Positions 7,527-60,854 of a stretch of 64,000 nt of DNA are shown here, piece by piece. Within the stretch, counting starts at the first letter, position 1. Each line of letters starts with the position of its first letter. Both the position numbers and the translations under genes were made by a program. Under the pieces are notes generated by a model. That model had not been told where the DNA came from. It saw only the letters and a list, made by a program, of their open reading frames with translations, and made no database searches. The DNA comes from Myxococcales bacterium (GTDB lineage Bacteria > Myxococcota_A > UBA9160 > SZUA-336), in NCBI GenBank assembly GCA_013215565.1, contig JABSQV010000023.1:111442-175441 (forward strand), in the 5' to 3' direction.

Positions 7527-8048
7527 ATGGGTTTTCAGGATGCGAAGAAGGGCAGCAGCGAGGCTGCGAGCGTACGCCGCCCGGCGGGGTCGGGGCCGCT
7601 GACGGCATTCATCGACCAGGGATCCGAGTTCTCGGGCAAGCTGTGTTTCAAGGATACGGTCCGGATTGACGGCAAGCTGGAGGGTGAGATCACGAGCGAC
7701 AATACCCTCATCGTGGGCGAGACCGGGGAGATCCGGGCCAGCATCGTCTCAGAAGTCGTGATCGTATCGGGGCTCGTCGAGGGGGATGTCGTCGCCAACC
7801 GCCAGCTCACGCTTCAGAAGACCGCGCGTCTGCACGGCGACGTCCAGACCGGGAGCCTGCTCGTCGAGGACGGGGCGGTTCTGAACGGCACCGTCAAGAT
7901 GGGCGGGAGCCCCAGGCAGACGAGGCCGGTCCTGCCGGAAGCCGGCGGCCCGGCGAAGTCGTCGCAGACACCCGGCCAGGCCTCCCGGACCGACCCGAAG
8001 GCCGGCCAAGCCGTCGCCGGGGGCACCAAGGGCCCACTCAAGAACTGA
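7527..8048 (+). CDS. bactofilin family cytoskeletal protein
   Basis: MGFQDAKKGSSE... followed by a beta-helical bactofilin (DUF583) repeat core (TLIVGETGEIRASIVSEVVIVSGLVEGDVVANRQLTLQKTARLHGDVQTGSLLVEDGAVLNGTVKMG) and a Pro/Gly/Lys-rich C-terminal tail. Strong SD AAGGAG 6 nt upstream of ATG 7527. Confidence 0.8.
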   Translation: MGFQDAKKGSSEAASVRRPAGSGPLTAFIDQGSEFSGKLCFKDTVRIDGKLEGEITSDNTLIVGETGEIRASIVSEVVIVSGLVEGDVVANRQLTLQKTARLHGDVQTGSLLVEDGAVLNGTVKMGGSPRQTRPVLPEAGGPAKSSQTPGQASRTDPKAGQAVAGGTKGPLKN

Positions 8049-8092
8049 GCCGGCCGCTTGCGCGGCTCCGAGGCTCTGCGTAGGCTCCGCGT

Positions 8093-8764
8093 GTGCGGGT
8101 ACGCGTGCTCCTGTTCGCGGGGCTTCGGGAAACAATCGGCCGGAAGGAAGTCGCGCTCGACCTGCCCCCGGAAGCGACCCTGGGCGATGCCGTCGTCGAA
8201 CTCGAGCGCTGCTGGCCCGCGCTGGCCGGATCCCGGCGCCGGCTCCTGGTCTCGCTGAACGCCGAGCGGGTGCCCCTGGATCGGCCACTCGCGGATGGAG
8301 ACGAGGTTGCGCTGCTGCCGCCCATGAGCGGGGGTTCGGGCGTGCAGGCGGGCGCGCTGCAACTCCTGGCGGAGCCGCTCTCCCTGGATCGTCTGATCGA
8401 TCGGGTGAGAGGGCCGGAGCGCGGTGGAATCGTCACCTTTACGGGTGCCGTGCGGAAACACTCCCGGGGCGAGACGATCGACCACCTAGAGTACGAGGCG
8501 TACGAACCGATGGCCCTCGGCGAGATGCAACGGATCGCGGACGAGGTCGGGGCGCGCTGGCCCGGGGTCCGGCTCGCGATCGCGCACCGGGTCGGGCGGC
8601 TCGAGATCGGGGACGCGGCCGTGATGATCGCGGCGGCGGCGCCCCACCGGGCCGAGGCCTTCGAGGCTTGCCGCTACGCAATCGACACGCTGAAGCGGAC
8701 CGTTCCGATCTGGAAGAAGGAGTTTGCCGAGAACGGTGCCTACTGGGTGGACGAGAACCCATGA
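8093..8764 (+). CDS. fused molybdopterin synthase sulfur-carrier (MoaD) and catalytic (MoaE) subunit, MoaX-like
   Basis: N-terminal ~82 aa is MoaD-like and ends in the diglycine ...LLPPMSGG. The remainder is MoaE (GIVTFTGAVRKH...LEYEAYEPMA...IAHRVGRLEIGDAAVMIAAAAPHRAEAFEACRYAIDTLKRTVPIWKKE). GTG start; ATGA overlap with moaB. Confidence 0.8.
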   Translation: MRVRVLLFAGLRETIGRKEVALDLPPEATLGDAVVELERCWPALAGSRRRLLVSLNAERVPLDRPLADGDEVALLPPMSGGSGVQAGALQLLAEPLSLDRLIDRVRGPERGGIVTFTGAVRKHSRGETIDHLEYEAYEPMALGEMQRIADEVGARWPGVRLAIAHRVGRLEIGDAAVMIAAAAPHRAEAFEACRYAIDTLKRTVPIWKKEFAENGAYWVDENP

Positions 8765-9279
8765 GCGACGCCGACAGCGCCCCTCACCAGCACCGCGCGT
8801 ACGCGCCCGATTCCGTGAACTGCTGGGTGCTCACGGTGAGCGACAGCCGCTCTGCCGCAAGCGACAGCTCGGGAAGGCTCATCGAGGAGAAGCTCGAGGC
8901 CGCCGGTCACCGGGCCCTGTCGCGCAGCATCGTGCCGGACGACCCCGAGGCGATCCGGAGCGCCCTCGAGCGCGCGATCGCGCTTCCGGAGGTGGACGCC
9001 GCGCTCGTCACGGGGGGCACCGGCGTGTCGCCGCGGGACCGGACGCCGGAAGCCGTGGCGCCACTGCTCGACAAGCTCCTGGACGGCTTCGGCGAGCTCT
9101 TCCGCGCGCTCTCCTTTGTGGAGATCGGGCCCGCCGCAATGCTGTCCCGGGCCCTCGCCGGCACCGCGGGCCGGACCGTCATCTACGTGATGCCGGGATC
9201 GAGGGCCGCGGTGGCGCTCGCCCTGGACCGCCTGATCCTTCCCGAGATCTGCCACCTCGTCGGACAGTTGCGCCGCTAG
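8761..9279 (+). CDS. moaB: molybdenum cofactor biosynthesis protein B (MoaB/MogA family)
   Basis: ...VLTVSDSRS...GRLIEEKLEAAGH...ALVTGGTGVSPRDRTPEAV...IYVMPGSRAAV.... Confidence 0.8.
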   Translation: MSDADSAPHQHRAYAPDSVNCWVLTVSDSRSAASDSSGRLIEEKLEAAGHRALSRSIVPDDPEAIRSALERAIALPEVDAALVTGGTGVSPRDRTPEAVAPLLDKLLDGFGELFRALSFVEIGPAAMLSRALAGTAGRTVIYVMPGSRAAVALALDRLILPEICHLVGQLRR

Positions 9280-9356
9280 CCCGGGTCCTCGGGCAGCGCG
9301 GCGACGACCTCCGGGCTGTGCTTCAGGCGCCCCGGGCGGCTTCCGAAGAAGCTCCC

Positions 9357-10655
9357 ATGGAGTCCCGGACCGCCCGCCGGCTGCGGCAACTTCTGCTCTG
9401 GGGCGCCGGTGCCTGCCTGCTGGTGCTGTTCCTGCCCGCCACCGTGGCCGTGTTCGTGGACGCACGCGGCCACCCATACCTCACCGACCGCGACCGCGTG
9501 CCGGTTGAGGGAGCCGCGCGGCTCACCCCGGCCGAACTCAGGCGGCGCTGGAGCGGCGATCTGCTGGGCCCCCCGCTCGATCTCCCGCCCGACCCGGGTG
9601 GCGAGGAAGGGCGCTACCGGCGGAACCTCGACGCCGCGCGTGACGACCTCGCTCGCGGAGATGTGCGGCACGCGCTCGAGTCTCTGCGGCGCCTCGGCCA
9701 GGACCGGCCGGGACGTCCCGAGGCGCTGTTTCTGATCGCAAAGGTGGAACTGGAGCGGGGCCACTACGCGCCCGCGCGCGAAGCGATCGAGGAGATTCTG
9801 GGCACTGCGTCCCCGGTCGCGGACGGGTGGCGCGAAGCCGCAGCCGCCCTCGCCGACGAGATCGCGGCCGAGCGGGCGTTGTCGGAATCCCGTCCCGGCG
9901 CTCGGAGTCCGGTCCGGACCCGAAGCTCTGCGCATTTCCGGGTGACCTACGACCACCGCTTTGCGCGCAACGACTTCGGCGCGGCGGTCCTGGAACTCCT
10001 CGAGCGAGTGCGGAGCGAGAGCCTGGATCGCTTCGGACGCAGACTCCGGGATCCGCTCGCGGTCAAGCTGTACTCGCGTGCGCACTATCTCGATCGCTAC
10101 GGGCACCGCTTCGGATTCGCGACAGTCGGCTTCTACGACGGGGCAATTCACGTAGTGTCGGCCCGGCACCCGCGCCTGGAACTGGAAGCGCTGCTGGTGC
10201 ATGAGTACCTCCACGCGTTGTTCCACGACGCGCTCGGGAGTCATCGGCCCTTCTTTCTGAACGAGGGGATCGCGGAATCGGAAGAGGAGCGAGTGCGGGG
10301 CCGGTCCGCACTCAGCCGGCGCGACTGGCGAGAGTTGCTGGAGGCGTTGCGCGCGGACGGGTGGATTCCGCTCGCGTCGCTGGTACGCGGCTTCGGCGGC
10401 CTCGAGGGTGGGCGCTCCGCCGCGGCCTACCTCGAGTCGCGCGCCGCGGTTCAGCTGATCGAGAATCGCTTTCCCGGCGCCGTCGCGCGCTGGCTTGAGC
10501 GCTGCGCCGAGGGAGCGCGCTGGGAAGCTGCGATGGAAGCCGAGACCGGCTGGAACCTGGAGCAACTCGAGCGCGCGCTGATCGCCGACGTGGAATCACG
10601 CTTCGTCCCGGACCCCCTGGCCGCCGCCGGGGCTCAGCTCTCGGGTGCGAAGTAG
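9357..10655 (+). CDS. hypothetical exported protein with HExxH motif (putative MA-clan zinc metallopeptidase-like)
   Basis: N-terminal signal/TM (LLLWGAGACLLVLFLPATVAVFV) and the motif ...LLVHEYLHALFHD.... The 643-aa track ORF (8724..) is a read-through in this frame over moaB; ATG 9357 follows the moaB stop. Confidence 0.5.
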   Translation: MESRTARRLRQLLLWGAGACLLVLFLPATVAVFVDARGHPYLTDRDRVPVEGAARLTPAELRRRWSGDLLGPPLDLPPDPGGEEGRYRRNLDAARDDLARGDVRHALESLRRLGQDRPGRPEALFLIAKVELERGHYAPAREAIEEILGTASPVADGWREAAAALADEIAAERALSESRPGARSPVRTRSSAHFRVTYDHRFARNDFGAAVLELLERVRSESLDRFGRRLRDPLAVKLYSRAHYLDRYGHRFGFATVGFYDGAIHVVSARHPRLELEALLVHEYLHALFHDALGSHRPFFLNEGIAESEEERVRGRSALSRRDWRELLEALRADGWIPLASLVRGFGGLEGGRSAAAYLESRAAVQLIENRFPGAVARWLERCAEGARWEAAMEAETGWNLEQLERALIADVESRFVPDPLAAAGAQLSGAK

Positions 10656-22955: not shown

Positions 22956-23609
22956 ATGGCCGAGAGGCTGCGCCGGGATTTCGTTGCCGGGCTGCTGGTC
23001 TTCGTCCCGGTCGGGTTCACGATCATCGGGGTCTGGTGGATCATCGACCAGCTCGATCGGCTGGTCTTGCCCCGAATCTTCTCCGCGCTGGGCCTGGAAG
23101 GCGGTCAGCCGTTCTTGCTGGGGACCCTGGTCACGCTGCTTCTGATTCTGAGCGCCGGTGCGCTCACCCGGAGCTTCATCGGGCGCGGCGCGCTCGGCTT
23201 CTGGGAACGCATCGTGGAACGGATTCCGGTGGCCCGCAGTCTCTACTCGGTCGTGAAGCAGTTCATGCAAGCGACGATGGGTGAGGGGACGCGGAACTTC
23301 CGGCGCGTGGTGCTGATCGAGTATCCGCGACGGGGCATCTATTGCTACGCGTTCGTGACCGGGTCCGTGGATCAAGGCTTCCCGGGGCAACAGGGTCCGC
23401 TCACGAAGGTCTTCGTTCCGAGCACCCCGAATCCGACCACCGGCTATTACCTGCTGCTTCCGAATCGCGAGATCCGGGAGACCGGACTGACGATCGAAGA
23501 AGCATTTAAGCTGATCATTTCGGCCGGAATCGCGAGCCCGGGCGGCGAATTGCCCGTGGCCACAGCCGCGGAGGGTACGGCCGCCGGCGAGCGTGCCTCG
23601 GGGCGGTGA
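22956..23609 (+). CDS. DUF502 domain membrane protein
   Basis: MAERLRRDFVAGLLVFVPVGFTIIGVWWI... matches the DUF502 N-terminus and core. Confidence 0.7.
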   Translation: MAERLRRDFVAGLLVFVPVGFTIIGVWWIIDQLDRLVLPRIFSALGLEGGQPFLLGTLVTLLLILSAGALTRSFIGRGALGFWERIVERIPVARSLYSVVKQFMQATMGEGTRNFRRVVLIEYPRRGIYCYAFVTGSVDQGFPGQQGPLTKVFVPSTPNPTTGYYLLLPNREIRETGLTIEEAFKLIISAGIASPGGELPVATAAEGTAAGERASGR

Positions 23610-24088
23610 AGGAGCCCAAACCCGATCCGGCCATCCGGACCATCTGCAAGAATCGCCGTGCGCGTTATCGCTACCGCATTGAAGAGACGGTGGAGGCAGG
23701 TCTGGTGCTCGTGGGACCCGAGGTCAAGTCGCTCCGGGCCGGCAAGGCGAACCTCGTCGACAGCTACGCGCGCATCCAGGGCGGCGAGATCTTTCTGATG
23801 AAGGCGCACATCGCCCCCTACGAGCAGGCCAACCGCGAAAATCCAGATCCGACTCGCGAGCGCAAGCTCTTGCTTCACCATCGCGAGATTCATCGGCTTC
23901 ACGGAAAAGTCCGGGAGCGTGGCTACACGCTGATCCCGCTCGAGATGTATTTTCGAGACGGCCGTGCGAAGGTCGAACTCGGCCTGGCGCGCGGAAAGCG
24001 CACACACGACAAACGCGAGGCGATCGCCAAGCGGGATAGCGAGCGAAGGCTGCAGCTGATTCGAAAGCGCAGGAGCAGGGAGCGGTGA
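23606..24088 (+). CDS. smpB: SsrA-binding protein
   Basis: ...ICKNRRARYRYRIEETVEAGLVLVGPEVKSLR...HIAPYEQAN...LLLHHREI... with a basic C-terminal tail. tmRNA is encoded 3.3 kb downstream. Confidence 0.9.
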   Translation: MKEPKPDPAIRTICKNRRARYRYRIEETVEAGLVLVGPEVKSLRAGKANLVDSYARIQGGEIFLMKAHIAPYEQANRENPDPTRERKLLLHHREIHRLHGKVRERGYTLIPLEMYFRDGRAKVELGLARGKRTHDKREAIAKRDSERRLQLIRKRRSRER

Positions 24089-27352: not shown

Positions 27353-27706
27353 GGGGGCGATCGGTTTCGACGGGTGGTGGACGTTCGTTGTTGCGTGTCG
27401 AGGTGCCGTGTCCTCGTGAATCCCGCGGTAAGGCAAATTCAATTGCCGATAATAATCTCGCTCTCGCTGCCTAGATAACGCAGCGAGCGTTCCCCGGTCC
27501 GACGCCTGCTGAGGCCGGGGGGCGTCAACTCAGCAGGCTGGCCCAAGCCGTCGTCGGTGCGGTGCGGGCGAGAAAGGTGCCGACTCGCGGCCGAAGAGCC
27601 GGGCTTCCGGAGCTCCCGGTCCGCTAAATTGATCCGGCAGCTACACACGTAGACGCAGCGGAAACAGCCCATTCGGACGCGGGTTCGATTCCCGCCGCCT
27701 CCACCA
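27353..27706 (+). ncRNA. ssrA: transfer-messenger RNA (tmRNA, ssrA), one-piece
   Basis: 5' GGGGGCGAUCGGUUUCGACGGG and 3' ...GGACGCGGGUUCGAUUCCCGCCGCCUCCACCA (T-arm plus CCA). The 5' 7 nt pair with the 3' end as an acceptor stem (one G-U). An internal tag reading frame ends ...GCC GAU AAU AAU CUC GCU CUC GCU GCC UAG (…ADNNLALAA*). No protein ORF is plausible here. smpB lies nearby. Confidence 0.9.
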
Positions 27707-30521: not shown

Positions 30522-31481
30522 TCAGCGCGCCCTGCCGACGCGGCGGCTCTGGGCCGCCATGAACTCGATCAGGGCTTCCGCGTCGGCGTCGTCGAGCCGC
30601 AGGTTCGGCATCGCGAGCTGGTTGTAGCGCTCGAAGAGTTCGCGAGCGATCGGGTCGCCCTCGGCCAGCATCTCGTCCGGCTCCTTGAGCCAGCGCACCA
30701 GCCAGGCGTGGTCTCGCAGTTTGGTCACGCCGTGAAGGTCTGGCCCAAGCGACTCGCCACCGCCGATCGTGTGACACGACGCGCAGCGGCTGCGATACAG
30801 GTACTCCCCGCGCGAGTACTTGGGCGCGTCGGGCACGTTCGCGTAGCTCCGGGCGTTGCTCCGCTGCAGCATGCCGTCGAAGAGCCCGTAGCCGATCAGG
30901 TTGGCCAGGCTCTTGGGGTTGTCGAACGGCGAACGCTTGATCCACTTCCCGGTGCGGTCGTTCCCGACGATGAAGCTGATGTTGTGATCGCCCGAGCCGT
31001 CCTGGATCTCGTCCAGGTAGAGGCCGAGCTTCTGACGCAGCAGCGTGATGTCGGCTTCCTCTCCGGTCAGGAAGACCCAGCCCGGCCCGATCTGGAACTT
31101 CTTCCGAAATTTCTTCAGGACCGCGGGCGTATCGTGCTCGGGGTCGATACTGATCGAGTACATGAAGACGTCGCGCCCGACCCGGTCGCCGAGTTCGTTG
31201 TAGACCTGCTTGAGCTTTGCGGTCTCGGCCGGACACGAGTCGGGGCAGCTCGTGTAGATGAAGTTGACGGCTACGACCCGGTTCTCGACCAGGTCGTCGT
31301 AGAAGCGGACGGACTCGCCCTCGTGCGTGATGAGCGGGATGTTCGGGAAGTAGCCCGCGCCCCGCGAGCCGGCCAGGGCCGGGCAGGCGCTCGCCTGGAC
31401 CACGAACGCCGCGAGTAACAGCGCCGCGATTCGGTTCTTTCGCCGGAGACGCTTCGGGCTGGGCACTTTCATGGGTCTCAT
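30522..31481 (-). CDS. Sco1/SenC family copper chaperone fused to a C-terminal mono-heme cytochrome c domain (module A)
   Basis: Signal/TM N-terminus; thioredoxin-fold Sco core with CPDSCP (CxxxCP) and ...DPEHDTPAVLKKF.... The C-terminal domain carries CASCH (CxxCH) and MPNL. The start lies 5 nt downstream of the stop of the preceding giant gene. Confidence 0.8.
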   Translation of the reverse strand: MRPMKVPSPKRLRRKNRIAALLLAAFVVQASACPALAGSRGAGYFPNIPLITHEGESVRFYDDLVENRVVAVNFIYTSCPDSCPAETAKLKQVYNELGDRVGRDVFMYSISIDPEHDTPAVLKKFRKKFQIGPGWVFLTGEEADITLLRQKLGLYLDEIQDGSGDHNISFIVGNDRTGKWIKRSPFDNPKSLANLIGYGLFDGMLQRSNARSYANVPDAPKYSRGEYLYRSRCASCHTIGGGESLGPDLHGVTKLRDHAWLVRWLKEPDEMLAEGDPIARELFERYNQLAMPNLRLDDADAEALIEFMAAQSRRVGRAR

Positions 31482-31486
31482 CCCGG

Positions 31487-34400
31487 CTAGCGTCGCCGTG
31501 CCCGGCGCCGGTCGCGTTCTGCCTTGCGCTGCGCCCGGCGTTCCTCCAGCCGTCTCACCTGTTCCGTTCGCTGCTCGGCACGCGCCCTGGTGCGTTCCGC
31601 CTGACTCGCGGCCAGGGTCATCGCCAGTTGTGATTGCTCCGCCGCGCGAATCCGCTCGGCCTCTTCCCGAGCTGGGCTTTGAGACGGCTGCCGGTGCGTG
31701 CCGGACGTGTCCTCCTGGGCCAGCCTGCGTGAGCGGGCGGCTGTGCGGAGGGCCTCGGCCTTGGCGTTCCGCCGGGCGGTCCTGGCGTCCCTGACTGCCT
31801 TGCGCATCGCGTTTCTCTGCGCTCGGAGCGTCGTGCGGGTGCTGGGGGGCGAAACCAGGTCCGGGGCGCTCGCGATCTCGGCCGGGTTCGTCCGGGAGTC
31901 GGGCCCTACGCTCGGGGGATCGGGGATCGGGGTCGACGCGACCGGCTCAGGCCGAACCGCATTCGCGTCCGAATCGAGATCCGAATCCGCGTCGTCGTTC
32001 TCGATTTCGTTCTCATCAGCGGGTTCCGGGATCGAAGCCACCGGGCTGAACGGCGGGACGGAGTCGAGCAGCCCGGCGGCCGCGGAGCTCTGGAGGAACT
32101 CTTCCTTGGCCTTCGGGTCGCCCACCACGCGGGAGCGGTTGCCGCTCGCGGTTGCGAGTTCGTAGCTCTCGGTATAGCTGCAGCCGTTCCATTGCGGCTG
32201 GGGCGTCAGGAAGGGTTTGAGCTGGCCCGGGTTCTCGATGTCCCAGCGCATGAGCATCGCGTGGTCTTCGTGCGAAGTATTGTGGCAGTGCTCCATGTAG
32301 GTGCCCGCGAACTCGCGGAAGCGAATCGCGACTGTGACCTCGCTGCCGCTGTCGTCCATGCGTCCGACGCGGTAGATGTCCTTGCGCGCCCACTTCTCCC
32401 ATTCGGGGGGCGGCTTGCCGTCACGTGTGAGGATTCGGCCTTCCTCGAAGTGAATGTGGACGTTGTGGCTCCAGCCGCCGTTGCCCTCGAGGTGCCAGAT
32501 TTCGAGATCACCGAGCCCTGGCGCGGCCGAGACTCGGTGCGGATCCATGCCGAGCATGCCACCGCTGCCGTCGTCCGTCTTGATGCCCCACGGGTTCTCT
32601 CCGCGCATCGCCAGCTGGCCTTCCTCGACGTTGTTCACCGATACGCCGCCCTGCTCGAACTCGAAGCTCCCCATCCGGTTGGGCGCGGGACTACCCTGCG
32701 TGTCGGTGAAGACCGCGTTCGTGATGGTTACCGGCTGTTTGTCAGTGGCGGCGCCGCGTCCGAACTTGAAGGTGCGGTGATGCGCGCGGGCAAGCTGCGT
32801 CGCGGGAAGCGCGGGCAGAGGGATCATCTTCTTCTTGCCCGGAACGTAGTCTGCGGGATCCAGACTCGGGTCGGAGTCGGCGTAGGCGTGTACCCGAAGC
32901 TCGAGGAACTTTCCGACGATCGTATCGCAGTTTCCGTCCCGCTCGTATTCCCCGGAGAGGACGTCAGCGAGCGGAACCGCGCGGTGTGGGCGCTTGCCGT
33001 TGTGGTGCTCGAGCAGGTTGACCATGTAGAGCCGGTCGTCGGGTTCGAGCTTGGCAGGATTGTGCTCGCTGAAGTCGACGATGATGTCGTAGCGCTCCGC
33101 GATTGACTGCGTCGGCAGGATGCCGTTGTGATCCTGGGTGTCTCCGTCCGCATCGAGGTCCATGCTGCCGTCGAAGGGCACGGCATGCTCGAGGATATTG
33201 CCGTCGTTGGCGATCAAGTGAAACGGCACCCGGTCGTAGGAGGTTCCCGGGTTCTCGCCCGAAAATTCCCCGCCGGCGTGATTCCGCTTTACCACCAGCG
33301 CGATCCGGAGAAAGCGCGATACGTGGGCATTCAGCATGCGGAATCGGTACCGGCGTGCGCGCACATCGAAGTAGGGGTCGTGGAGCCAGTTGATGGTCAT
33401 CCGGTCGCCCAGAAACCCGTCGGTGTTGAAGGTCGCGAACCAGAGTTGGCCGCTTGTATCGTCGACCTCGGTTCCCTCGTACCTCTGCGTGTCCTGGCCC
33501 CAGGCCTTTCCAGCCAGTTCCAGGTTGATGTCGTAGTCCCGGTTCCCCCAACTGCTCTCCCCGAGCGCACATCCGCTCGGGAGCCTCAGGTTGACCCCGT
33601 CGTCGACGCACTCGTTGCCGCGGTCGATCGCGCTGTACATGTTGAACATCGCGGCGTTGCCCTTGTAGACGTTCTGTGCGGTGTAGTCGAGCATGTGGTC
33701 GTGGAACCAGTGCGAGCTCATGATCTCGCGCCAGTCCCCGAACACGTTGATGCGGCCGTCTTCGCAGCGCTTCTCGATGCGCTTCCAGCCACAGGCCGCC
33801 GGATCGTCGTAGGCGGACACTCCAAAGGCGCGCGTGGCGTTCTCCGAGAGCTTCTGCTGCCGCGTGCATGCCTTGCCGTTCCCGTCACTGAGCGGGGACG
33901 GATGCGAAATCACGAGCGACTCGCCTGGCTGACACGGGGTCGACGCACGCGGATCGCTGGCGTCGGTATTGTCGACCTGGTTTCCGTCGAGCGGATCGTG
34001 CGCGGCCAGGATCATCGGCCAGTGGTAGTCGTAGTGCTGGCCCGGGAGGAAGAACGCCTGAGTGTAGCCGTCGCTCTCAGCCGGGTTGTGGCCGTTGTGC
34101 TCGTGAGTGGTGATGAAGTGGTTGCCGAAGCCGCGGTTGGCGTCGAAGCGGATCGGGAGCGCGTTGTGGTTCCGAAACAGGACGCCCTCGCTGTAGCGTG
34201 CCTTGAGCAGCTTTGGCGGAAAGGTGCCGTCGAAGGTCCAGAGTGCCTGATGGTCCTGGACCGGAATGTTCGGGTGGAACCGGACTTCAATCCCGGCCGT
34301 CGTGCCGTCGAACCTTCCGCTGCAGCGACTGGTCGCGGCGTCCCACTTGCAGATCCGGTCCGCCGGGTTGGTCAGAGGATTCGCCCGGGCCTCGCAGGCC

Positions 34401-35335
34401 GCCTGCTCGCTCAGGCTGGAACAGACCTTCGCTGCAACACCGTGCACGGGGTTGTGGTAGAGGCCACCGGGCGCGAACTCGCCTTTGTTGTAGCGGTGGC
34501 TCTGGGAGGAATCGCGCAGACCGCTGTTGGTGCGTGCACCCGACACGACCGTCTCGGCGTACACCGGGGGGAAGAACTCGTCCCAGCGCTGGTGCCCGTA
34601 CTGCGGTCCCTCGGGGCGGCCGTCGCAGTAGCTGCTGATCCCGCCTGGCTCCATCGGGAAAAGCTTTCCCGTGTGTGTGTTCTCGATGCACTCTTCCCAG
34701 TCGTTGGTGCGCGATTGGAAGATTCCCTCGGACTCGGACTCCTCGGCCGGATAGGGGTGGATGCGTTGAGTCAACAAATCGTCGAGCGCCGCGCCGTTCA
34801 CGCTGCAGCTCGCGCAGTCGTTTCCATCAGCGTCGTGGGGATCCGGCAGCTTCAGGGGGCAGGCCTCGCAGGGCTCCGCGTTGCTCTCGCCGTGAACGCT
34901 GCTGCGGCTCGGACAGCAGGAACCCGCGAGCGGGTCGTGATCCGTGGGCTGGGGCAGCGGACTCGTGCCGAACTCCTCGAGGCGCATCAACTGCTGGCTG
35001 AACGGCGTCGCGCCGAAGAGCGGGCTGTGGGCGCCATCGGTGGGGACGTTGCAGGCTCCGCCGAAGTTCTGGTTTCCGCGGAGTCCCGCGCTGAGCGCCG
35101 GGTTTGCGGCACTCACCGGGCTGTCGCTCGGGTCGGGATCGGCTGCTGCCGGCTGCGGGAGGGCCGCGAGCAGGCTGCAGGCCAGGGCGAGCGCGAGGCC
35201 GAAGCCCGTGACGCGAGTTCCCGCCGGGAGCCGGAGTGCTGCGGGGCGGGACCGCGATGGGTCGTGCTCGTGGGCTGGGTTCGGGAGCAGCTCCAGCGCC
35301 CTGCGCCAACTTCTGTCTCTTGGTTCCCTGGTCAT
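31487..35335 (-). CDS. giant multicopper oxidase family protein (~1280 aa; MnxG/MofA size class), secreted, with Cys-rich N-terminal region and highly charged C-terminal tail (module A)
   Basis: Cupredoxin copper-ligand motifs HEHNGH, HWFHDHMLDYT, WSHNVHIHFEEG and MEHCHNTSHEDHAM (HCHxxxHxxxxM, the T1/T3 signature). Hydrophobic signal region GFGLALALACSLLAALPQPAAA. C-terminal ~250 aa is acidic (DENEIENDDADSDLDSD), then Pro-rich, then Arg-rich helical (…RRLEERRAQRKAERDRRRARRR). Start ATG 35335; an alternative is GTG 35353. Confidence 0.75.
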   Translation of the reverse strand: MTREPRDRSWRRALELLPNPAHEHDPSRSRPAALRLPAGTRVTGFGLALALACSLLAALPQPAAADPDPSDSPVSAANPALSAGLRGNQNFGGACNVPTDGAHSPLFGATPFSQQLMRLEEFGTSPLPQPTDHDPLAGSCCPSRSSVHGESNAEPCEACPLKLPDPHDADGNDCASCSVNGAALDDLLTQRIHPYPAEESESEGIFQSRTNDWEECIENTHTGKLFPMEPGGISSYCDGRPEGPQYGHQRWDEFFPPVYAETVVSGARTNSGLRDSSQSHRYNKGEFAPGGLYHNPVHGVAAKVCSSLSEQAACEARANPLTNPADRICKWDAATSRCSGRFDGTTAGIEVRFHPNIPVQDHQALWTFDGTFPPKLLKARYSEGVLFRNHNALPIRFDANRGFGNHFITTHEHNGHNPAESDGYTQAFFLPGQHYDYHWPMILAAHDPLDGNQVDNTDASDPRASTPCQPGESLVISHPSPLSDGNGKACTRQQKLSENATRAFGVSAYDDPAACGWKRIEKRCEDGRINVFGDWREIMSSHWFHDHMLDYTAQNVYKGNAAMFNMYSAIDRGNECVDDGVNLRLPSGCALGESSWGNRDYDINLELAGKAWGQDTQRYEGTEVDDTSGQLWFATFNTDGFLGDRMTINWLHDPYFDVRARRYRFRMLNAHVSRFLRIALVVKRNHAGGEFSGENPGTSYDRVPFHLIANDGNILEHAVPFDGSMDLDADGDTQDHNGILPTQSIAERYDIIVDFSEHNPAKLEPDDRLYMVNLLEHHNGKRPHRAVPLADVLSGEYERDGNCDTIVGKFLELRVHAYADSDPSLDPADYVPGKKKMIPLPALPATQLARAHHRTFKFGRGAATDKQPVTITNAVFTDTQGSPAPNRMGSFEFEQGGVSVNNVEEGQLAMRGENPWGIKTDDGSGGMLGMDPHRVSAAPGLGDLEIWHLEGNGGWSHNVHIHFEEGRILTRDGKPPPEWEKWARKDIYRVGRMDDSGSEVTVAIRFREFAGTYMEHCHNTSHEDHAMLMRWDIENPGQLKPFLTPQPQWNGCSYTESYELATASGNRSRVVGDPKAKEEFLQSSAAAGLLDSVPPFSPVASIPEPADENEIENDDADSDLDSDANAVRPEPVASTPIPDPPSVGPDSRTNPAEIASAPDLVSPPSTRTTLRAQRNAMRKAVRDARTARRNAKAEALRTAARSRRLAQEDTSGTHRQPSQSPAREEAERIRAAEQSQLAMTLAASQAERTRARAEQRTEQVRRLEERRAQRKAERDRRRARRR

Positions 35336-35410
35336 CTGGCTCTCCGGATCCACGCCTGTGCGGAACTATTTTAGGGGCATGTGGCTAAAATAGAACAGTT
35401 TGTTGGGCTC

Positions 35411-36757: not shown

Positions 36758-36761
<4 letters not shown>
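35811..36761 (-). CDS. Sco1/SenC-cytochrome c fusion protein (module B paralogue)
   Basis: Same architecture as module A: CPDSCP, DPEHDTPAVLKKF, CTSCH (CxxCH), MPNL. About 80% nucleotide identity to 30522-31481 by eye. ATG 36759-36761 overlaps the stop of the upstream giant gene (ATGA). Confidence 0.8.
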
Positions 36762-40279
<3,518 letters not shown>

Positions 40280-40384
40280 CAGTTCAGCCTCCCAGTTCAG
40301 TAGGCGAGGGAATGCACCGAATCCGTTGTGCGTCTCTGGGACGACTCTCCAGGTGCTGCGCCGACTGCGACACCGCCGAAGCGA

Positions 40385-40530
40385 TCTTCGGAAATACCGG
40401 AATATGTTAGTTCTCAAAATCTTCAACAAGTAGGTAACTTGTACGCATCTAATCGGAAATAGTCAAGCTTTCAAAATGTTGATTCATATAATCTATATGT
40501 GTAAAATAGTATCAGCGTGTGACGAACTCG
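40385..40530. promoter_or_regulatory. AT-rich intergenic island between module B (minus) and a glutaredoxin-like gene (plus)
   Basis: About one-third GC by eye in a ~70% GC background. A plus-strand sigma-70-like promoter TTGATT-17-TAAAAT sits at 40479-40507. Minus-strand candidates for the MCO gene are weaker (TTGACT ... TACAAG). Confidence 0.4.
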
Positions 40531-51946: not shown

Positions 51947-52970
51947 CATGGATCCCGCCGGCCGAAGACGCATCGGTGAGACCGCGCTCGAGGTCACATC
52001 CCTCGGCATGGGCGGCGCAGCCATCGGAAACCTCTACGCGCCGGTCGCAGAGGAGACTGCGCTCGATGCGGTCGCGTCCGCACTCGAAGCAGAGCTCGGG
52101 TTCTTCGACACCGCGCCGCTCTACGGCTTCGGACTCAGCGAAGCGCGTCTCGGTCGCGTGCTCCGCGAACGCGCGCGACCGAGTTACGTATTGTCGACCA
52201 AGGTCGGGCGCCTGCTCGAAGAGCGCCCGTCCGGAGCTTCCGAGGACCCGGCGTTCGTTGACGCGTTGCCCTTCGAGGCGCGCTACGACTACTCCTACGA
52301 TGGAGTGATGCGCTCATTCGAGGAGAGCCTGTCCAGGCTCGGCACCGGGCGCATCGACATGCTCTTGCTCCACGACATCGGGCTGCTCACGCACGGCGAG
52401 TCCGCGCACGCCGCGCTTTTCGAGACGGCCATGGCCGGAGGATTCCGCGCGCTCGAGGAGTTGCGCCGAACCGGGGCGGTCGCAGCCGTGGGTCTCGGCG
52501 TGAACGAGAGCGCCGTGTGTTTCGAGGCGCTCCAGCGCGTGGCACTCGACTGCATTCTGCTCGCGGGCCGCTACACGCTGCTCGAACAGGGCGCACTCGA
52601 ACTCCTGCGGCTGTGTGAGGAGCGCGGTGTGTCGGTCGTGGTCGGGGGTCCCTACAACTCCGGACTCCTGGCGACAGAGGCCGGCTCCGGATCCAGCTAC
52701 GACTACCGCCCGGCGCCCGGGGCGGTGGTCGAGCGGGCACGGCGGATCGGCGCGGTCTGTGCCCGACACCGCGTTCCGCTCCAGGCGGCGGCGCTCCAGT
52801 TCCCGCTGAGGCACCGGGCAGTGGCTTCCGTGATCCCCGGCGCGCGTTCCCGCACGGAGCTGGAGCAGAACGCGGACTTCGTGCGTCACCCGATTCCAGA
52901 CGCGCTCTGGAGCGAACTCTGCGCGAACGGGTTGCTCGATCCGGGCGCGCCGACCGCGGAGTTCGCGTGA
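51947..52970 (+). CDS. aldo/keto reductase
   Basis: ...LGMGGAAIGN...FFDTAPLYG... AKR signatures. AGGAG SD before ATG 51947. The track ORF has a spurious 5' extension. Confidence 0.85.
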
Positions 52971-53824
52971 GTCCTGCCCGCGTCGATGCCCACCAGCACT
53001 TCTGGGAGCTCGCACGCGGCGACTATGCCTGGTTGACGCCGGAGCTCGAACCGCTTTATCGCGACTTTGGACCCGCAGACCTCGAGCCGTTGCTGCGCCA
53101 GGCGGACATCGAGGGCACGGTGCTGGTGCAGGCGGCCCCGACGCTGGCCGAGACGCGCTACCTGCTCGAGATCGCGGCACGTACGCCCTGGGTCGCCGGC
53201 GTCGTCGGCTGGGTGGACCTCGCAGCCCGGGACGTGGGGGAACAGCTCGAAGGGTTCTCCGACGCGCTGGCGCTTCGGGGGATCCGGCCGATGCTCCAGG
53301 ATCTGCCCGATCCGGACTGGATTCTCCGGCCCGAGGTGACGCGCGGCCTACGAGAGGTCGAAGCTCGAGGGCTCCGTTTCGACGCTCTGATCCGGCCCGA
53401 ACACCTGTCCCGTTTGCCGTGGCTCGTGGAGCGTCACCCCGAACTCCGGATCGTGATTGATCACGCGGCAAAGCCCGAAATCGAGAAGGGGGGCTTCGAG
53501 CCGTGGGCGCGCGAACTCGCGCGGGTCGCGCGCGGGACCGGGATCTGCTGCAAGCTCTCGGGCCTGGTGACGGAGGCGGGCGCCGGCTGGTCGGTCGAAG
53601 CTCTGCGTCGCTACGTCGACCTTCTGCTCGAGAGCTTCGGGCCGGAGCGACTGCTCTGGGGCAGCGACTGGCCCGTCGTCGAAACTGCGCGCGGCTTTCG
53701 CGAGTGGCGGCGAGCGACCGAAATCCTGCTCGAGCCGCTCGCGGCGCACGAACGCGCAGCGATCCTGGGTGGGAGCGCGGTCGAATTCTATGCGCTCGAG
53801 ATCACCGAGGAGCTGGGCGAGTGA
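52967..53824 (+). CDS. amidohydrolase-2 family lactonase (L-fucono-1,5-lactonase-like)
   Basis: ...VDAHQHFWE...IDHAAKP.... ATGA overlap with the AKR gene. Confidence 0.7.
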   Translation: MSPARVDAHQHFWELARGDYAWLTPELEPLYRDFGPADLEPLLRQADIEGTVLVQAAPTLAETRYLLEIAARTPWVAGVVGWVDLAARDVGEQLEGFSDALALRGIRPMLQDLPDPDWILRPEVTRGLREVEARGLRFDALIRPEHLSRLPWLVERHPELRIVIDHAAKPEIEKGGFEPWARELARVARGTGICCKLSGLVTEAGAGWSVEALRRYVDLLLESFGPERLLWGSDWPVVETARGFREWRRATEILLEPLAAHERAAILGGSAVEFYALEITEELGE

Positions 53825-53827
53825 AAC

Positions 53828-56117: not shown

Positions 56118-57296
56118 GATCCGGGACAGCGCAGCGAGATCAACCGGGACGTCGAACCCGTCTACGAGGGCGAGTTCGCTGCGGTCCGGGTCGGGCCGAT
56201 TGCGGTCTCGCCCCCGGTGGTGCTGGCGCCCATGGCAGGCGTGACGAACGCGCCGTTCCGCAGGCTCTGCCGCGGTTTCGGGGCTGCGCTCTACGTGAGC
56301 GAGATGATCACGGCCCGGGGCCTCGTCGAGGGGCACGCGAAGACGCGGAAGCTCGCGGGCTTCGCCCCGGATGAGACGCCGCGCAGCCTTCAGCTCTACG
56401 GGACCGACCCTCACTACACGGCCGAGGCCGTACGGCGCCTGGTGGGCGAGGGGGCTGTCGACCATCTGGACCTCAACTTCGGGTGCCCCGTGCGCAAGGT
56501 CACGCGCAGGGGCGGGGGCGCGGCGATCCCGCTCAAGCGGGCGCTGCTTCGCAACATCGTCCGCGCGGCCGTGCACGCCGCGGGTGCGGTACCGGTGACG
56601 ATCAAGTTCCGAATCGGGATCGATGACGATCACCCCACCTTTCTGGAGACCGGACGGATTGCGGAAGGGGAGGGCTGTGCGGCCGTGGCCCTACACGCGC
56701 GCACCGCGGCGCAACTCTACGACGGCGAGGCGCGCTGGTCGGCGATCCGCGAACTGGCGGACGCCGTCGATACGATCCCGGTCTTCGGTAACGGAGACGT
56801 CTGGGAGGCCTGGGACGCGGTACGCCTGTTGCGTGAGACCGGGTGCGACGGAGTTGTGGTCGGCCGCGGCTGTCTGGGTCGGCCCTGGCTGTTTCGCGAT
56901 CTCGCACGAGTCTTCTCGGGACGGGAGCCGGAGCCCCCGCCGAACCTCGGAGAGGTGATCGACGTCATGCGTGATCACGCTCGTCTACTTGCCGAGTGGT
57001 TCGGCGAGAGCTACGGGCTGCGGAGTTTTCGGAAGCACGCCGGCTGGTACACGAAGGGGTTTCGCGGAAGCGCGTCGCTGCGCGTGCGACTCGTCTCGGT
57101 CTCGAGCCTGGACGAACTCGAGCGCACGCTCGAGGGTCTCGATCGGCACGAGCCGTTCCCGCGCTCGGCGCTGCGCGTGAGTCGGGGCAAGAGCGCGGGC
57201 ACGCAGACCGTCGCGCTGCCCCCGGGCTACCTGGATGACCTGGAAGACCCGACGCCACCGCCCGCGGAGGCCGAAGCACTGCTCTCGGGGGGCTAG
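56118..57296 (+). CDS. dus: tRNA-dihydrouridine synthase
   Basis: ...PVVLAPMAGVTNAPFRRLCR...DLNFGCPVRKV...IKFRIG.... Start codon uncertain (GTG 56118 or 56097); C-terminal extension of about 60 aa. Confidence 0.8.
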   Translation, partial: DPGQRSEINRDVEPVYEGEFAAVRVGPIAVSPPVVLAPMAGVTNAPFRRLCRGFGAALYVSEMITARGLVEGHAKTRKLAGFAPDETPRSLQLYGTDPHYTAEAVRRLVGEGAVDHLDLNFGCPVRKVTRRGGGAAIPLKRALLRNIVRAAVHAAGAVPVTIKFRIGIDDDHPTFLETGRIAEGEGCAAVALHARTAAQLYDGEARWSAIRELADAVDTIPVFGNGDVWEAWDAVRLLRETGCDGVVVGRGCLGRPWLFRDLARVFSGREPEPPPNLGEVIDVMRDHARLLAEWFGESYGLRSFRKHAGWYTKGFRGSASLRVRLVSVSSLDELERTLEGLDRHEPFPRSALRVSRGKSAGTQTVALPPGYLDDLEDPTPPPAEAEALLSGG

Positions 57297-57314
57297 GATG
57301 CCAGCGCGGCAGGG

Positions 57315-58421
57315 ATGTTCGCGTCGAACGGCCGACTGGCGCATGATCTCCCAAATCCTGGAGGCACAGAGCGCTTGAGCGAGATTCGGCTCACACAGCT
57401 CGTCCCGGCCGGCGGCTGAGCCCGCAAGCTCGGAGCCGAGGACCTGGTTCAGGTCCTGCGTCGGGTCGCTCCCTTCGATCATCCATGGGTCGATGCTGCG
57501 GTCGCTCCCATGGAGGATGCGGCACTGCTGCGTCCGCCCGATGGCGCAGCCCTCGTCTTCACAGTCGATTTCATCACGCCGATCGTGGACGAGCCCGAGA
57601 TCTACGGTGCGATCTCGGCCGCGAATGCGCTCTCGGACGTGTACGCGATGGGGGGCGAGCCGCAGGTCGCGCTCGCGATCTGTGGCTTCCCGGAGGACGA
57701 GTTGCCCCACGAGATTCTCGCGCGCATCTTCCGCGGCGGACGCGACAAGGCGGCGGAGGCAAACTGCGCGATCGTCGGCGGCCACACCGTGATCGACCCG
57801 GAACTCAAGTACGGGCTCTGCGTCATCGGTCGGGTGGACCCGGGGCGCGAACTGACCCAGGCGGGAGCGCGGCCCGGCGACCGGCTCGTCCTGACCAAGG
57901 CGATCGGAACCGGGATCGCGGCGCAGGCGATCAAGAGCGGTGTGCTTTCCGCGAAAGACCGTGCTTGCGCGATCGAGTCGATGATGACCCTCAATCGCGG
58001 CGCGAAGGACGCGGCCCTCGCCGCCGGGGTTCGGGCGGCCACCGACGTGACCGGCTTCGGCCTGCTCGGACACCTGCATCAGCTCGCGCTCGCTTCGGGC
58101 CTGGGTGCGCGCGTCGACGGCGCTCGGGTTCCGCTGTTTCCCTTCGCGCGCGAACTTGCCGAGAAGGGCCAGGTGCCGGGTGGCACGAAGCGAAACCTGG
58201 CATACGTCGAGCCTCACCTCCGCTGGGATGGCCCGGTCGCGGAACACGAGCGGCTGCTGCTCTGCGATGCGCAGACCTCGGGCGGGCTCCTGCTCGCGGT
58301 TCCCGCGGAGGGAGAGCGCACCCTGCTCGACGAACTCGAACGCGCCGGCGTTGGCAGCTTCGCCTCGATCGGTGAACTGGTCGAGAGCACGCCGGGCGGA
58401 ATCGAGGTCGGGGGCGTCTGA
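57315..58421 (+). CDS. selD: selenide, water dikinase (selenophosphate synthetase), selenocysteine-containing; in-frame TGA (Sec) at 57417-57419
   Basis: The track shows only the 57510.. fragment. The same frame extended upstream gives MFASNGRLAHDLPNPGGTERLSEIRLTQLVPAGG-U-ARKLGAEDLVQ.... This aligns with the E. coli SelD N-terminus [21 protein letters not shown], with TGA at the essential Cys17 position. Downstream core ...TVDFITPIVD...AMGG...VTGFGLLGHL... is canonical. Confidence 0.85.
57432..57472 (+). promoter_or_regulatory. SECIS-like stem-loop downstream of the selD UGA
   Basis: AGGACCU-GGUUC-AGGUCCU perfect 7-bp stem (57439-57445 with 57451-57457), G/U-containing apical loop, flanked by GGAGC...GCUCC. 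Begins about 19 nt after the UGA. Confidence 0.5.
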
Positions 58422-58550
58422 AGCGGATCCAGCGCGGGTGCGGGTCGGCCGACCCGCGACGCTGCCCGACCAGGCCGGCAGTCGATCGAACGCGCGGCCC
58501 CTGATAGGATCGGCCGGCTGGCGGCGGCTCGCCGCCCAGAGGAGAAGCGC

Positions 58551-59729
58551 ATGGCCGACCGGGCACAGATTCAGGGAGCGTGTGACCCGCGCTTCGAGCG
58601 CGTACGCGAGGCCTTCGAGAAGAACTTTCGCGACTCCGAAGGGACCGAAGGCGGAGAGGTTGGAGCCGCGGTTGCGGTCGTGCTCGACAACCGGCCGGTC
58701 GTCGATCTGTGGGGCGGCTTTGCGGATGCCGGGCGAACGCGTCCCTGGGAACCCGATACGATCGTGAACGTCTACTCGACCACCAAGGGAATGACGGCGC
58801 TGTGTGCGCACCGTCTCGTCGAGCAGGGACGGCTGGATCCGGATGCCCCGGTTGCCGACTACTGGCCCGAGTTCGCCCAGGCCGGCAAGGGCAGCCTGCC
58901 GGTCTCGTACCTGCTCTCGCATCGGGCCGGGCTTCCGGCGGTTCGTAAGCCGCTTCCCACGACCGCGCTGGCCGACTGGGAGTTGATGACGAGCGCGCTT
59001 GCGGAGCAGGAGCCCTGGTGGGAGCCCGGGACCAAGCATGGCTACCACGCGCTCACCTTCGGATACCTGGTCGGCGAGGTGGTGCGGCGCATCGACGGGC
59101 GTAGCCTCGGAACCTATTTCAGGGAGGAGTTGGCCGAGCCTCTCGGCGTCGATTTCCACATCGGCCTCGGTCCCGAGCACGATGCGCGCGTCGCCGACAT
59201 GCTGCCCGCGCCGGAGCCTCCGGCGAGCGCCCCGAACCCGTTCGCCGACATGGCGAAGGACCCGGAGTCGATGGCTTCGAAGGCCTTCAACAATCCCGGA
59301 ACCGGTCCCGGCACCGTGAATACGCGCGCGTGGCGCGGGGCCGAGATTCCGGCCGGTAACGGTCACGGCGATGCGCGCGGGCTCGCGCGCGTCTACGGCG
59401 CACTGGCCGTGGAGGGCGAGGTGGACGGCATCCACGTGCTCGGTACCGAGGCGCGCGATCGCGCGATCAGCGAGCAGGCGAACGGGCCCGATGCGGTGCT
59501 CTTCGGGATGCCGATGCGCTTCGGGCTGGGCTTCTTCCTGACGCAGCCGATGATCCCGCTCGGACCGAACCCGCGTGCCTTCGGTCATCCCGGCGCCGGC
59601 GGCTCGATCGCCTTTGCGGATCCGGACGCGAAACTCGCGTTTGCCTACGTGATGAACCAGATGCAGATGGGCCTGGCCGGCGACGCGCGCGGCTTCGGGT
59701 TGATCGAGTCCGTCTACGACGCACTCTAG
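58551..59729 (+). CDS. serine hydrolase (beta-lactamase/transpeptidase-like fold; esterase family VIII-like)
   Basis: ...VNVYSTTKGMTALCA... (S-x-x-K). Confidence 0.8.
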   Translation: MADRAQIQGACDPRFERVREAFEKNFRDSEGTEGGEVGAAVAVVLDNRPVVDLWGGFADAGRTRPWEPDTIVNVYSTTKGMTALCAHRLVEQGRLDPDAPVADYWPEFAQAGKGSLPVSYLLSHRAGLPAVRKPLPTTALADWELMTSALAEQEPWWEPGTKHGYHALTFGYLVGEVVRRIDGRSLGTYFREELAEPLGVDFHIGLGPEHDARVADMLPAPEPPASAPNPFADMAKDPESMASKAFNNPGTGPGTVNTRAWRGAEIPAGNGHGDARGLARVYGALAVEGEVDGIHVLGTEARDRAISEQANGPDAVLFGMPMRFGLGFFLTQPMIPLGPNPRAFGHPGAGGSIAFADPDAKLAFAYVMNQMQMGLAGDARGFGLIESVYDAL

Positions 59730-59771
59730 CGTCCTGCGCCGTAGCAGCGCGTAGCGCGGGGGCCATTTCGA

Positions 59772-60854
59772 GTGAGCGGAAAATGCGGATCGGGTGTCCT
59801 GAGACCGGCGCTGTACGCGTTGCCGCTGCTGCTCGGCCTGGGCTCCGCCTGCTCCCAGGCTCCGAGCGACGCGCCGGTCCCGAGGTCGCAGGTTCGACTC
59901 AAGGTGCAGTCGGCCTTCAGCTTCAACCAGCCGGTCCTCGGCGAGAGCGCCCAGCACCTCGCAGAAATCATCGAGTCGATGGGCCGGGACGACATCCGAC
60001 TCCGCGTCTACGACGCGGACAAGTTGGTCCCGCCGCTCCAGATCTTCGACGCGGTCACGGCGGGCTTTCTCGATGCCGGGTATTCGTGGCCCGTCTACTG
60101 GATGGGGAAAATTCCGGCGATCACGCTCTTTGGGGCGGTGCCCTTCGGCCCGGAGGCGGGCGAGTTTCTCGCGTGGGTCCAGCAGGGGGAAGGCCTCGCG
60201 CTCTGGCGCGAACTCTACGCGCGACACGGCGCAGTTCCGGTCCCGTGCGGAGTGCTGCCGCCCGAAGCGTCGGGCTGGTTCGCGAGCCCGATCTACGAAC
60301 TCTCGGACCTCGAGGGCCTGAAGATTCGCTTCGCCGGACTCGGGGGGGAGGTGCTCCGAAAGCTCGGGGCTTCGGTCACGATGCTGGCGGGCGGAGACAT
60401 CTTTCCGAGTCTGGAGCGCGGCGTGCTCGACGCAACCGAATACTCGATGCCCGCCGTCGATCGCGCGCTCGGGTTCTACAAGGTCGCGAAACACTACTAC
60501 TTTCCCGGTTGGCATCAGCCGTCTTCGATTCTCGAGTTGATCGTGAACAAGCAGGTGTGGGACGGGATGTCGCCGGAGCAGCGCGCCTTCATCGAGACCG
60601 CGTGTAACGCGAACATCATCTGGAGCATGACCCGAGGCCTCGCGCTTCAGGGCGATGCGATCGCCTATCTGGAAGCGCAGGGGGTGGTGCTGCACAGTTG
60701 GCCCCCGGAGATCCTGGAGCGATTCCGAGAACTGTCTCTCGAGGTTCTGGCGGAGGCGTCTGCCGAGGACCCGGATTTTGCCCGCGTGCTCGCCTCGCAG
60801 GAGGCGTTCCGGGCCGAGCATGCCCGGTGGGCTTCGATCGCCTACCAGCGGTGA
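59772..60854 (+). CDS. dctP: TRAP transporter substrate-binding protein (DctP family)
   Basis: Signal/lipoprotein N-terminus (LLLGLGSACS) and DctP-family fold. Confidence 0.8.
   Translation: MSGKCGSGVLRPALYALPLLLGLGSACSQAPSDAPVPRSQVRLKVQSAFSFNQPVLGESAQHLAEIIESMGRDDIRLRVYDADKLVPPLQIFDAVTAGFLDAGYSWPVYWMGKIPAITLFGAVPFGPEAGEFLAWVQQGEGLALWRELYARHGAVPVPCGVLPPEASGWFASPIYELSDLEGLKIRFAGLGGEVLRKLGASVTMLAGGDIFPSLERGVLDATEYSMPAVDRALGFYKVAKHYYFPGWHQPSSILELIVNKQVWDGMSPEQRAFIETACNANIIWSMTRGLALQGDAIAYLEAQGVVLHSWPPEILERFRELSLEVLAEASAEDPDFARVLASQEAFRAEHARWASIAYQR

Follow-up and report, generated by a model that had tools for sequence, protein, structure and literature searches.

selD and its in-frame UGA

The 64-kb stretch of DNA analysed here (the window) very probably carries, at 57375..58421 (+), an intact selD gene for selenide, water dikinase (selenophosphate synthetase), in which codon 15, an in-frame UGA at 57417..57419 (+), would be decoded as selenocysteine (Sec). 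The gene was not recognized in this form by automatic ORF calling. The called ORF at 57510..58421 (+) codes for 303 amino acids and is opened by the ATG at 57510..57512 (+), a false start which corresponds to Met46 of the full protein; the TGA lies upstream of this ORF, in frame with it. The ENA gene call on an independently assembled contig carrying an identical gene gave the same 303-amino acid truncated product, with the Pfam domains AIRS and AIRS_C. The part of the selD profile which holds the catalytic Sec/Cys and the Lys is missing from this product.

Translation across the TGA gave LSEIRLTQLVPAGG before and ARKLGAEDLVQVL after the stop symbol, as had been read in the first-pass annotation of this DNA, and the longer readthrough (57300-58421 in the frame of the ORF) gave GTERLSEIRLTQLVPAGG and ARKLGAEDLVQVLRRVAPFDHPWVDAAVAPMEDAALL on the two sides. 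The first-pass annotation had supposed that ORF calling cut selD short, and this was confirmed, since the 303-amino acid call is devoid of the N-terminal catalytic loop and the readthrough restores the N-terminus of SelD. The whole coding sequence has 348 codons including the one for Sec (347-348 residues in the product), its GC3 is 0.82 and its terminal stop is TGA.

In the profile and structure comparisons of the extended protein (start at 57375) the UGA was written as Cys. The NCBIfam equivalog TIGR00476 (selD) matched with 340.9 bits at a cutoff of 125, residues 5-312 of the protein being aligned with positions 1-309 of the 311 of the profile, and NF002098 gave 296.5 bits, just below its cutoff of 299. 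Since the TIGR00476 alignment begins at profile position 1, the extension corresponds to the true N-terminus of the family. In phmmer searches against the PDB the Aquifex aeolicus SelD (2yye) was matched with an E-value of 1.2e-67 and the E. coli SelD (3u0o) with 2.1e-64, and the N-terminus was covered from residue 3-4 on. The query segment eIRLTQlvpagGcarKlg placed U15 on Cys17 and K18 on Lys20 of E. coli SelD, and U15 also fell on the Cys of the SSGCAAK loop in 2yye. The earlier claim that the upstream extension aligns to the SelD N-terminus is therefore well founded.

The motifs DDAA(V), TxDF..PIVD, NA.SD..AMGG and TDVTGFGLLGH were all intact. In the window they read EDAA, TVDFITPIVD, ANALSDVYAMGG and TDVTGFGLLGH, they align with the motifs of the E. 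coli and A. aeolicus proteins, and we take them to be the ATP/metal binding motifs of the AIR-synthase-like fold. The features expected of a member of the SelD family, namely a full-length profile match, a Gly-rich loop with Sec/Cys and Lys, and the Asp/Asn motifs, were all found in the extended protein.

The start of the gene is most likely the TTG at 57375..57377 (+). This codon aligned with the start codons of the closest relatives, in which the N-terminus at this position is M-SE[IV]RLT with ATG or GTG as the first codon, and it was kept in the independently assembled contig. A Shine-Dalgarno-like GGAGG could be read from the sequence at 57360..57364 (+), 10 nt 5' of the TTG, and GGAG/GAGG motifs stand 4-9 nt before the start codons of selD in the relatives. 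The first-pass annotation had begun the protein at the ATG at 57315. This start was rejected, since the relatives begin at the position of TTG 57375 and the ATG is changed to ACG (C at 57316, position 2423 of the other contig) in the 99.87% identical assembly.

This independent assembly is the ENA metagenome contig ERZ23487716 scaffold_2218 (10.96 kb), referred to as L001. It differs from the window at 12 positions over 9107 nt, which shows that there are two strains or populations, closely related to each other. No difference falls in the TTG, the TGA or the hairpin described below, thus the TGA is not an assembly error. The more general explanation that selD is a pseudogene here, or that the TGA arose by a sequencing or assembly error from a Cys codon, draws on the fact that a single base change turns TGC or TGT into TGA and that an uncultured organism is the source of the sequence. 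However, the same TGA is present in L001 as well as in 72 of 80 relatives (the best 80 of 582 loci), and the remaining gene is intact, its coding statistics being normal and none of the conserved motifs missing. We regard the chance of a pseudogene or a sequence error as close to negligible.

Comparison with related selD loci

Related loci were sought in a scan in which each species was represented by one genome; 582 related stretches were found, and of these the best 80 loci were kept. The best eight relatives were 63-71% identical, their genomes being metagenome-assembled and labelled mostly Myxococcota, 'Deltaproteobacteria' or Binatia, and no conspecific genome was present in the scan. Among the best 80 of the 582 loci, which come from several phyla, the position of the Sec codon was occupied by TGA in 72 cases and by TGT/TGC in 8.

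The close clade, i.e. the window and seven relatives (n=8), was used for the comparison of codons around the UGA. Upstream of it, the invariant residues R5, L6, T7, V10, G13 and G14 were each encoded by 2-4 synonymous codons, and the same number was observed for each of the invariant A16, R17, K18, L19, G20 and A21 downstream. Amino acids which are kept while their codons vary synonymously are a sign of purifying selection on the protein, and translation in this frame thus takes place upstream as well as downstream of the UGA.

These data bear directly on the view that the TGA is a genuine stop, that the product is a 303-amino acid, N-terminally truncated SelD made from ATG 57510, and that the 45 codons upstream are an untranslated leader. 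The 303-amino acid product is the one obtained by mechanical listing of ORFs as well as in the ENA gene call, and TGA is the commonest stop in the window (34 of the 49 Pfam-supported ORFs). Nevertheless, such a product would be without the loop bearing the catalytic Cys/Sec17 and Lys20; codons 2-45 keep their amino acids with synonymous variation in the relatives, hence they are translated; the relatives possess a start codon and a Shine-Dalgarno-like motif at the position of TTG 57375; and the TGA is found at one exact codon in 72 of the best 80 of 582 loci. We consider termination at this codon to be very improbable and retain the reading of the UGA as a Sec codon.

The hairpin downstream of the UGA

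A SECIS-like hairpin was located at 57439..57457 (+). Its 5' arm AGGACCUG (57439-57446, +) and its 3' arm CAGGUCCU (57450-57457, +) form 8 bp around the loop GUU (57447-57449, +), which becomes GGUUC if the closing G-C pair opens. The minimum free energy (MFE) was -11.6 kcal/mol and the loop lies 27 nt from the UGA. The first-pass annotation had put a stem-loop about 19 nt 3' of the UGA, and the hairpin indeed starts exactly 19 nt after it. According to the bacterial SECIS consensus (PMC13188914, Fig. 2) the apical loop has 3-9 nt and the upper stem 4-16 bp, a G occurs in the first two positions of the loop and G or U usually comes next, the distance between UGA and loop is 16-37 nt and the MFE is -7.5 kcal/mol or lower. 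All these constraints agree with the selD hairpin, which has a 3-nt loop, 8 bp, G then U, a distance of 27 nt and an MFE of -11.6 kcal/mol. When both strands of the 64 kb were screened, the TGA of selD was the only one which is preceded by an open frame, followed by a sequence with coding potential and accompanied by a hairpin of 7 bp or more at SECIS distance.

The fold of the 66-nt region was no better than that of dinucleotide shuffles (z = -0.68). The hairpin codons GAG GAC CTG GTN CAG GTC CTG are preferred codons of the GC-rich genome, and synonymous resampling of the window alone gave a chance of approx. 46% for a hairpin of at least 7 bp from the peptide EDLVQVL and the gene's own codon usage. 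Since the chance is so high and the shuffle test was negative, the hairpin of the single sequence is weak evidence and its weight comes from the relatives. Rfam at gathering thresholds gave no match in the whole window except the tmRNA, and at E-values up to 10 only two chance-level matches were obtained in 57300-57560, both away from the hairpin. Bacterial SECIS elements are diverse, and a matching curated Rfam model may be lacking.

Of the 72 TGA genes of the relatives, 69 have a hairpin of 6 bp or more in register A or register B (both discussed below), whereas the 8 Cys genes have none (Fisher 5.7e-9, a value not corrected for phylogeny). The eight Cys-type relatives also lack the hairpin-encoding peptide DL[VAG]QVL. 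The first-pass annotation had described selD as a selenoprotein gene in which a UGA takes the place of the catalytic Cys codon, and the alignment with SelD, the conservation of the TGA and its association with the hairpin all support this description.

The synonymous sites of the hairpin were unusually constant. Codons 22-28 had the top identical-codon fraction of 286 seven-codon windows, 0.874 as compared with 0.532 gene-wide (n=8), and their sole variable synonymous site in these eight sequences was the third loop base. Hairpin A occurred in 51 of the 72 TGA genes, as opposed to the 15.6 expected from the peptide and codon usage of each gene. In the 71 TGA-type sequences 89.8% of the cells of register A were paired, against 52% or less in slid controls, and compensatory changes were found at 3 pairs (C-G to U-A, G-C to C-G and G-C to A-U). 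RNAalifold recovered the hairpin de novo from the eight closest sequences, with zero covariation. Judged from these sequence comparisons, i.e. the synonymous conservation, the excess of 51 over 15.6 and the pairing relative to slid controls, the hairpin is conserved beyond the coding constraint. The Cys/Sec pair, the UGA-containing orthologues with flanking coding conservation, the agreement with the SECIS model and the constraint on the hairpin, by which bacterial selenoproteins are recognized, were all found for this gene.

An outer complementarity, GGAGC at 57432-57436 with GCUCC at 57468-57472 (57432..57472, +), had also been pointed out in the first-pass annotation. The two segments are present and complementary in the window; their conservation, on the other hand, was not confirmed and this part of the structure is doubtful. 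Only 36.1% of the cells were paired in the 71 sequences, compared with 29-44% in the slid controls for the combined structure, and there was no informative covariation. In the close clade, the four constant pairs fall on the first and second positions of Gly-Ala and Ala-Pro codons, and the wobble-wobble pair, the only free one, is matched in 4 of the 8 close sequences, approximately as by chance. The outer stem was rejected as a conserved element, since its pairing is at control level and its free pair is near chance.

In the mechanism suggested, the mRNA hairpin at 57439-57457 would act as a bacterial SECIS element and SelB would presumably bind to it. The tRNA would be placed at the ribosomal A site when this is reached by the UGA, which lies 27 nt upstream of the loop, and Sec would probably be inserted instead of termination. 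The predicted product is a selenophosphate synthetase whose N-terminal Gly-rich loop, PAGG-U-ARK, carries Sec where the E. coli enzyme has its catalytic Cys17.

The UGA might also be read as another residue, either as Cys carried on tRNA-Sec under selenium limitation or as Trp or Gly by near-cognate decoding or reassignment. The evidence presented comes from sequence, with which such a residue would also be compatible. On the other side, the co-occurrence of the SECIS-model hairpin with the TGA speaks against this reading, and Trp or Gly at the catalytic Cys17 would be expected to inactivate the enzyme, judging from E. coli SelD. Reassignment of UGA in the genetic code was rejected, since 34 of the 49 Pfam-supported ORFs, selD among them, end in TGA. 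Taken as a whole, decoding as a residue other than Sec appears quite unlikely, and Sec is kept as the preferred reading.

Two registers of the hairpin

The hairpins of the orthologues are found in two registers. Register A, in which the loop stands at 27 nt from the UGA, occurs in the window and its Myxococcota-like clade as well as in most Dehalococcoidia. Register B is located 6 nt further 3', with the loop 33 nt after the UGA, and was observed in Gemmatimonadota, Latescibacterota and others. Since only 3 bp of register B are possible in the window, its hairpin belongs to register A. In register B 77.3% of the cells were paired in the 71 sequences, against 36% or less in slid controls, and 38 double-change cells were counted in comparison with 15.3 in shuffles (0 of 500), so that covariation is clear in this register.

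The two registers are mutually exclusive and the conserved CAGGUCCUG is common to both (related loci L002-L081, in the 60 nt which follow the Sec codon). About a dozen genes, e.g. L041, L043, L050, L061, L068 and L075, are able to form both. When all 71 TGA-type sequences were submitted together to RNAalifold no consensus structure was obtained, and this is explained by the competition of the two registers. A shift of the SECIS register within one gene family, or a bistable SECIS, is a tentative suggestion, which we regard as rather less probable than its absence. If it is true, the register might track differences between phyla in SelB recognition or in the tolerance of spacing.

Selenocysteine machinery and genomic surroundings

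No tRNA-Sec was found by ARAGORN or Rfam in the 64-kb window, nor in the 81 loci. The E. coli SelA and SelB proteins gave no tblastn match in the window or in the regions which flank the 80 related selD loci, in a database which was shown to be working by the SelD matches. The Pfam scan of 60 ORFs of the window revealed no selA, selB, ybbB, yqeB, yqeC or other selenoprotein family, and selA, selB and selC were not detected within the approx. 20-kb surroundings of the 80 related selD loci. Since these genes are absent from the flanks of the 80 loci, selD is unlinked to selA/selB/selC in these lineages. A Sec-dependent SelD would imply that they are located elsewhere in the genome.

Besides the TGA of selD, the search of the window for in-frame TGAs which have coding potential on either side, whether or not a hairpin accompanies them, returned ordinary gene ends only, and no second selenoprotein gene was found within the 64 kb. 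The synteny check of the selD neighbours other than Dus in the relatives gave no matches.

The window is otherwise ordinary chromosome, with holB, bactofilin, moaDE, a sigma-70 factor, pepA, tolQRB, dksA, tsaD, ksgA, panBC, smpB and tmRNA, followed by assorted oxidoreductases, hydrolases and a TRAP transporter. The tmRNA at 27353-27706 (+) scored 171 bits in Rfam and encodes the tag peptide ADNNLALAA, and smpB (23510-24088, +) lies about 3 kb upstream of it. A single ORF at 8084-8764 (+) contains both ThiS/MoaD and MoaE, i.e. a fused small and large subunit of molybdopterin synthase.

Two neighbouring ORFs, at 31487-35365 (-) and 36758-40462 (-), code for 1292 and 1234 amino acids; the sole Pfam match in each is one C-terminal multicopper-oxidase domain (Cu-oxidase_2), and the greater part of both proteins is unannotated. 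An SCO1/SenC-cytochrome c fusion at 30522-31946 (-) adjoins them. The ORFs at 9276-10595 (-), 7814-8485 (-) and 52886-53827 (-) had coding-like GC3 and no Pfam match at 1e-5, and some of them may have arisen as antisense artefacts because the GC content is high. The ORF at 56985-60821 (-), of 1278 amino acids, is antisense to selD and to three neighbouring genes. With a GC content of 67.6% and real genes on the opposite strand, it is an artefact and not a gene.

Relation to known selenoproteins

FdhA and SelD have been reported as the bacterial selenoproteins with the widest distribution (PMC1794560, PMC5029168), and the first-pass annotation had correctly noted that Sec-containing SelD is known in many bacteria. 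SelD is listed as a selenoprotein in Anaeromyxobacter (A. dehalogenans, of the Deltaproteobacteria), Geobacter, Desulfovibrio and others (PMC1794560), and another description ranks it second in distribution among the selenoprotein families of prokaryotes and places its Sec in the flexible loop at the N-terminus (PMC13188914).

The selD of the window shares with the Sec-type bacterial SelD (A. aeolicus, 2yye/2zod) the TIGR00476 family, the UGA at the catalytic residue of the Gly-rich loop near the N-terminus and the hairpin in the coding sequence just downstream. It differs in being a new sequence of an uncultured lineage, whose best relatives are 63-71% identical, and in its loop PAGG-U-ARK an Arg stands at the position of E. 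coli Cys19 with no Cys nearby. With the E. coli SelD (Cys17, 3u0o) the protein is collinear over residues 3-341, and the IRLTQ N-terminus, Lys20 and the Asp ATP/metal motifs are conserved. The E. coli gene, in contrast, has a Cys codon (UGC/UGU) and no SECIS, and KISPKVLETIL follows its loop instead of the hairpin-encoding EDLVQVL.

Like the SECIS of E. coli fdhF and the bSECISearch model, the selD hairpin is a stem-loop which lies 3' of the UGA within the coding sequence and has a small apical loop of G then U. There is, however, no detectable sequence homology with the fdhF element, and the upper stem of the selD hairpin is without an evident bulged U. The loop GGUY of the selD hairpin resembles the GGUC loop of fdhF, and it is further from the UGA than the loop in fdhF.

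The Sec-containing SelD is thus a known, widespread kind of bacterial selenoprotein, and the present result is a correction of the annotation rather than a discovery; nothing in it challenges the current understanding. In the corrected form the gene is 57375..58421 with Sec at codon 15, instead of the 303-amino acid fragment. Since SelD would need Sec, and the synthesis of Sec needs SelD, an autocatalytic dependence follows, which has already been discussed (PMC1794560). In this uncultured, apparently Myxococcota-like bacterium a Sec-dependent SelD implies, without proving it, the presence of the full Sec-decoding machinery and the use of selenium.
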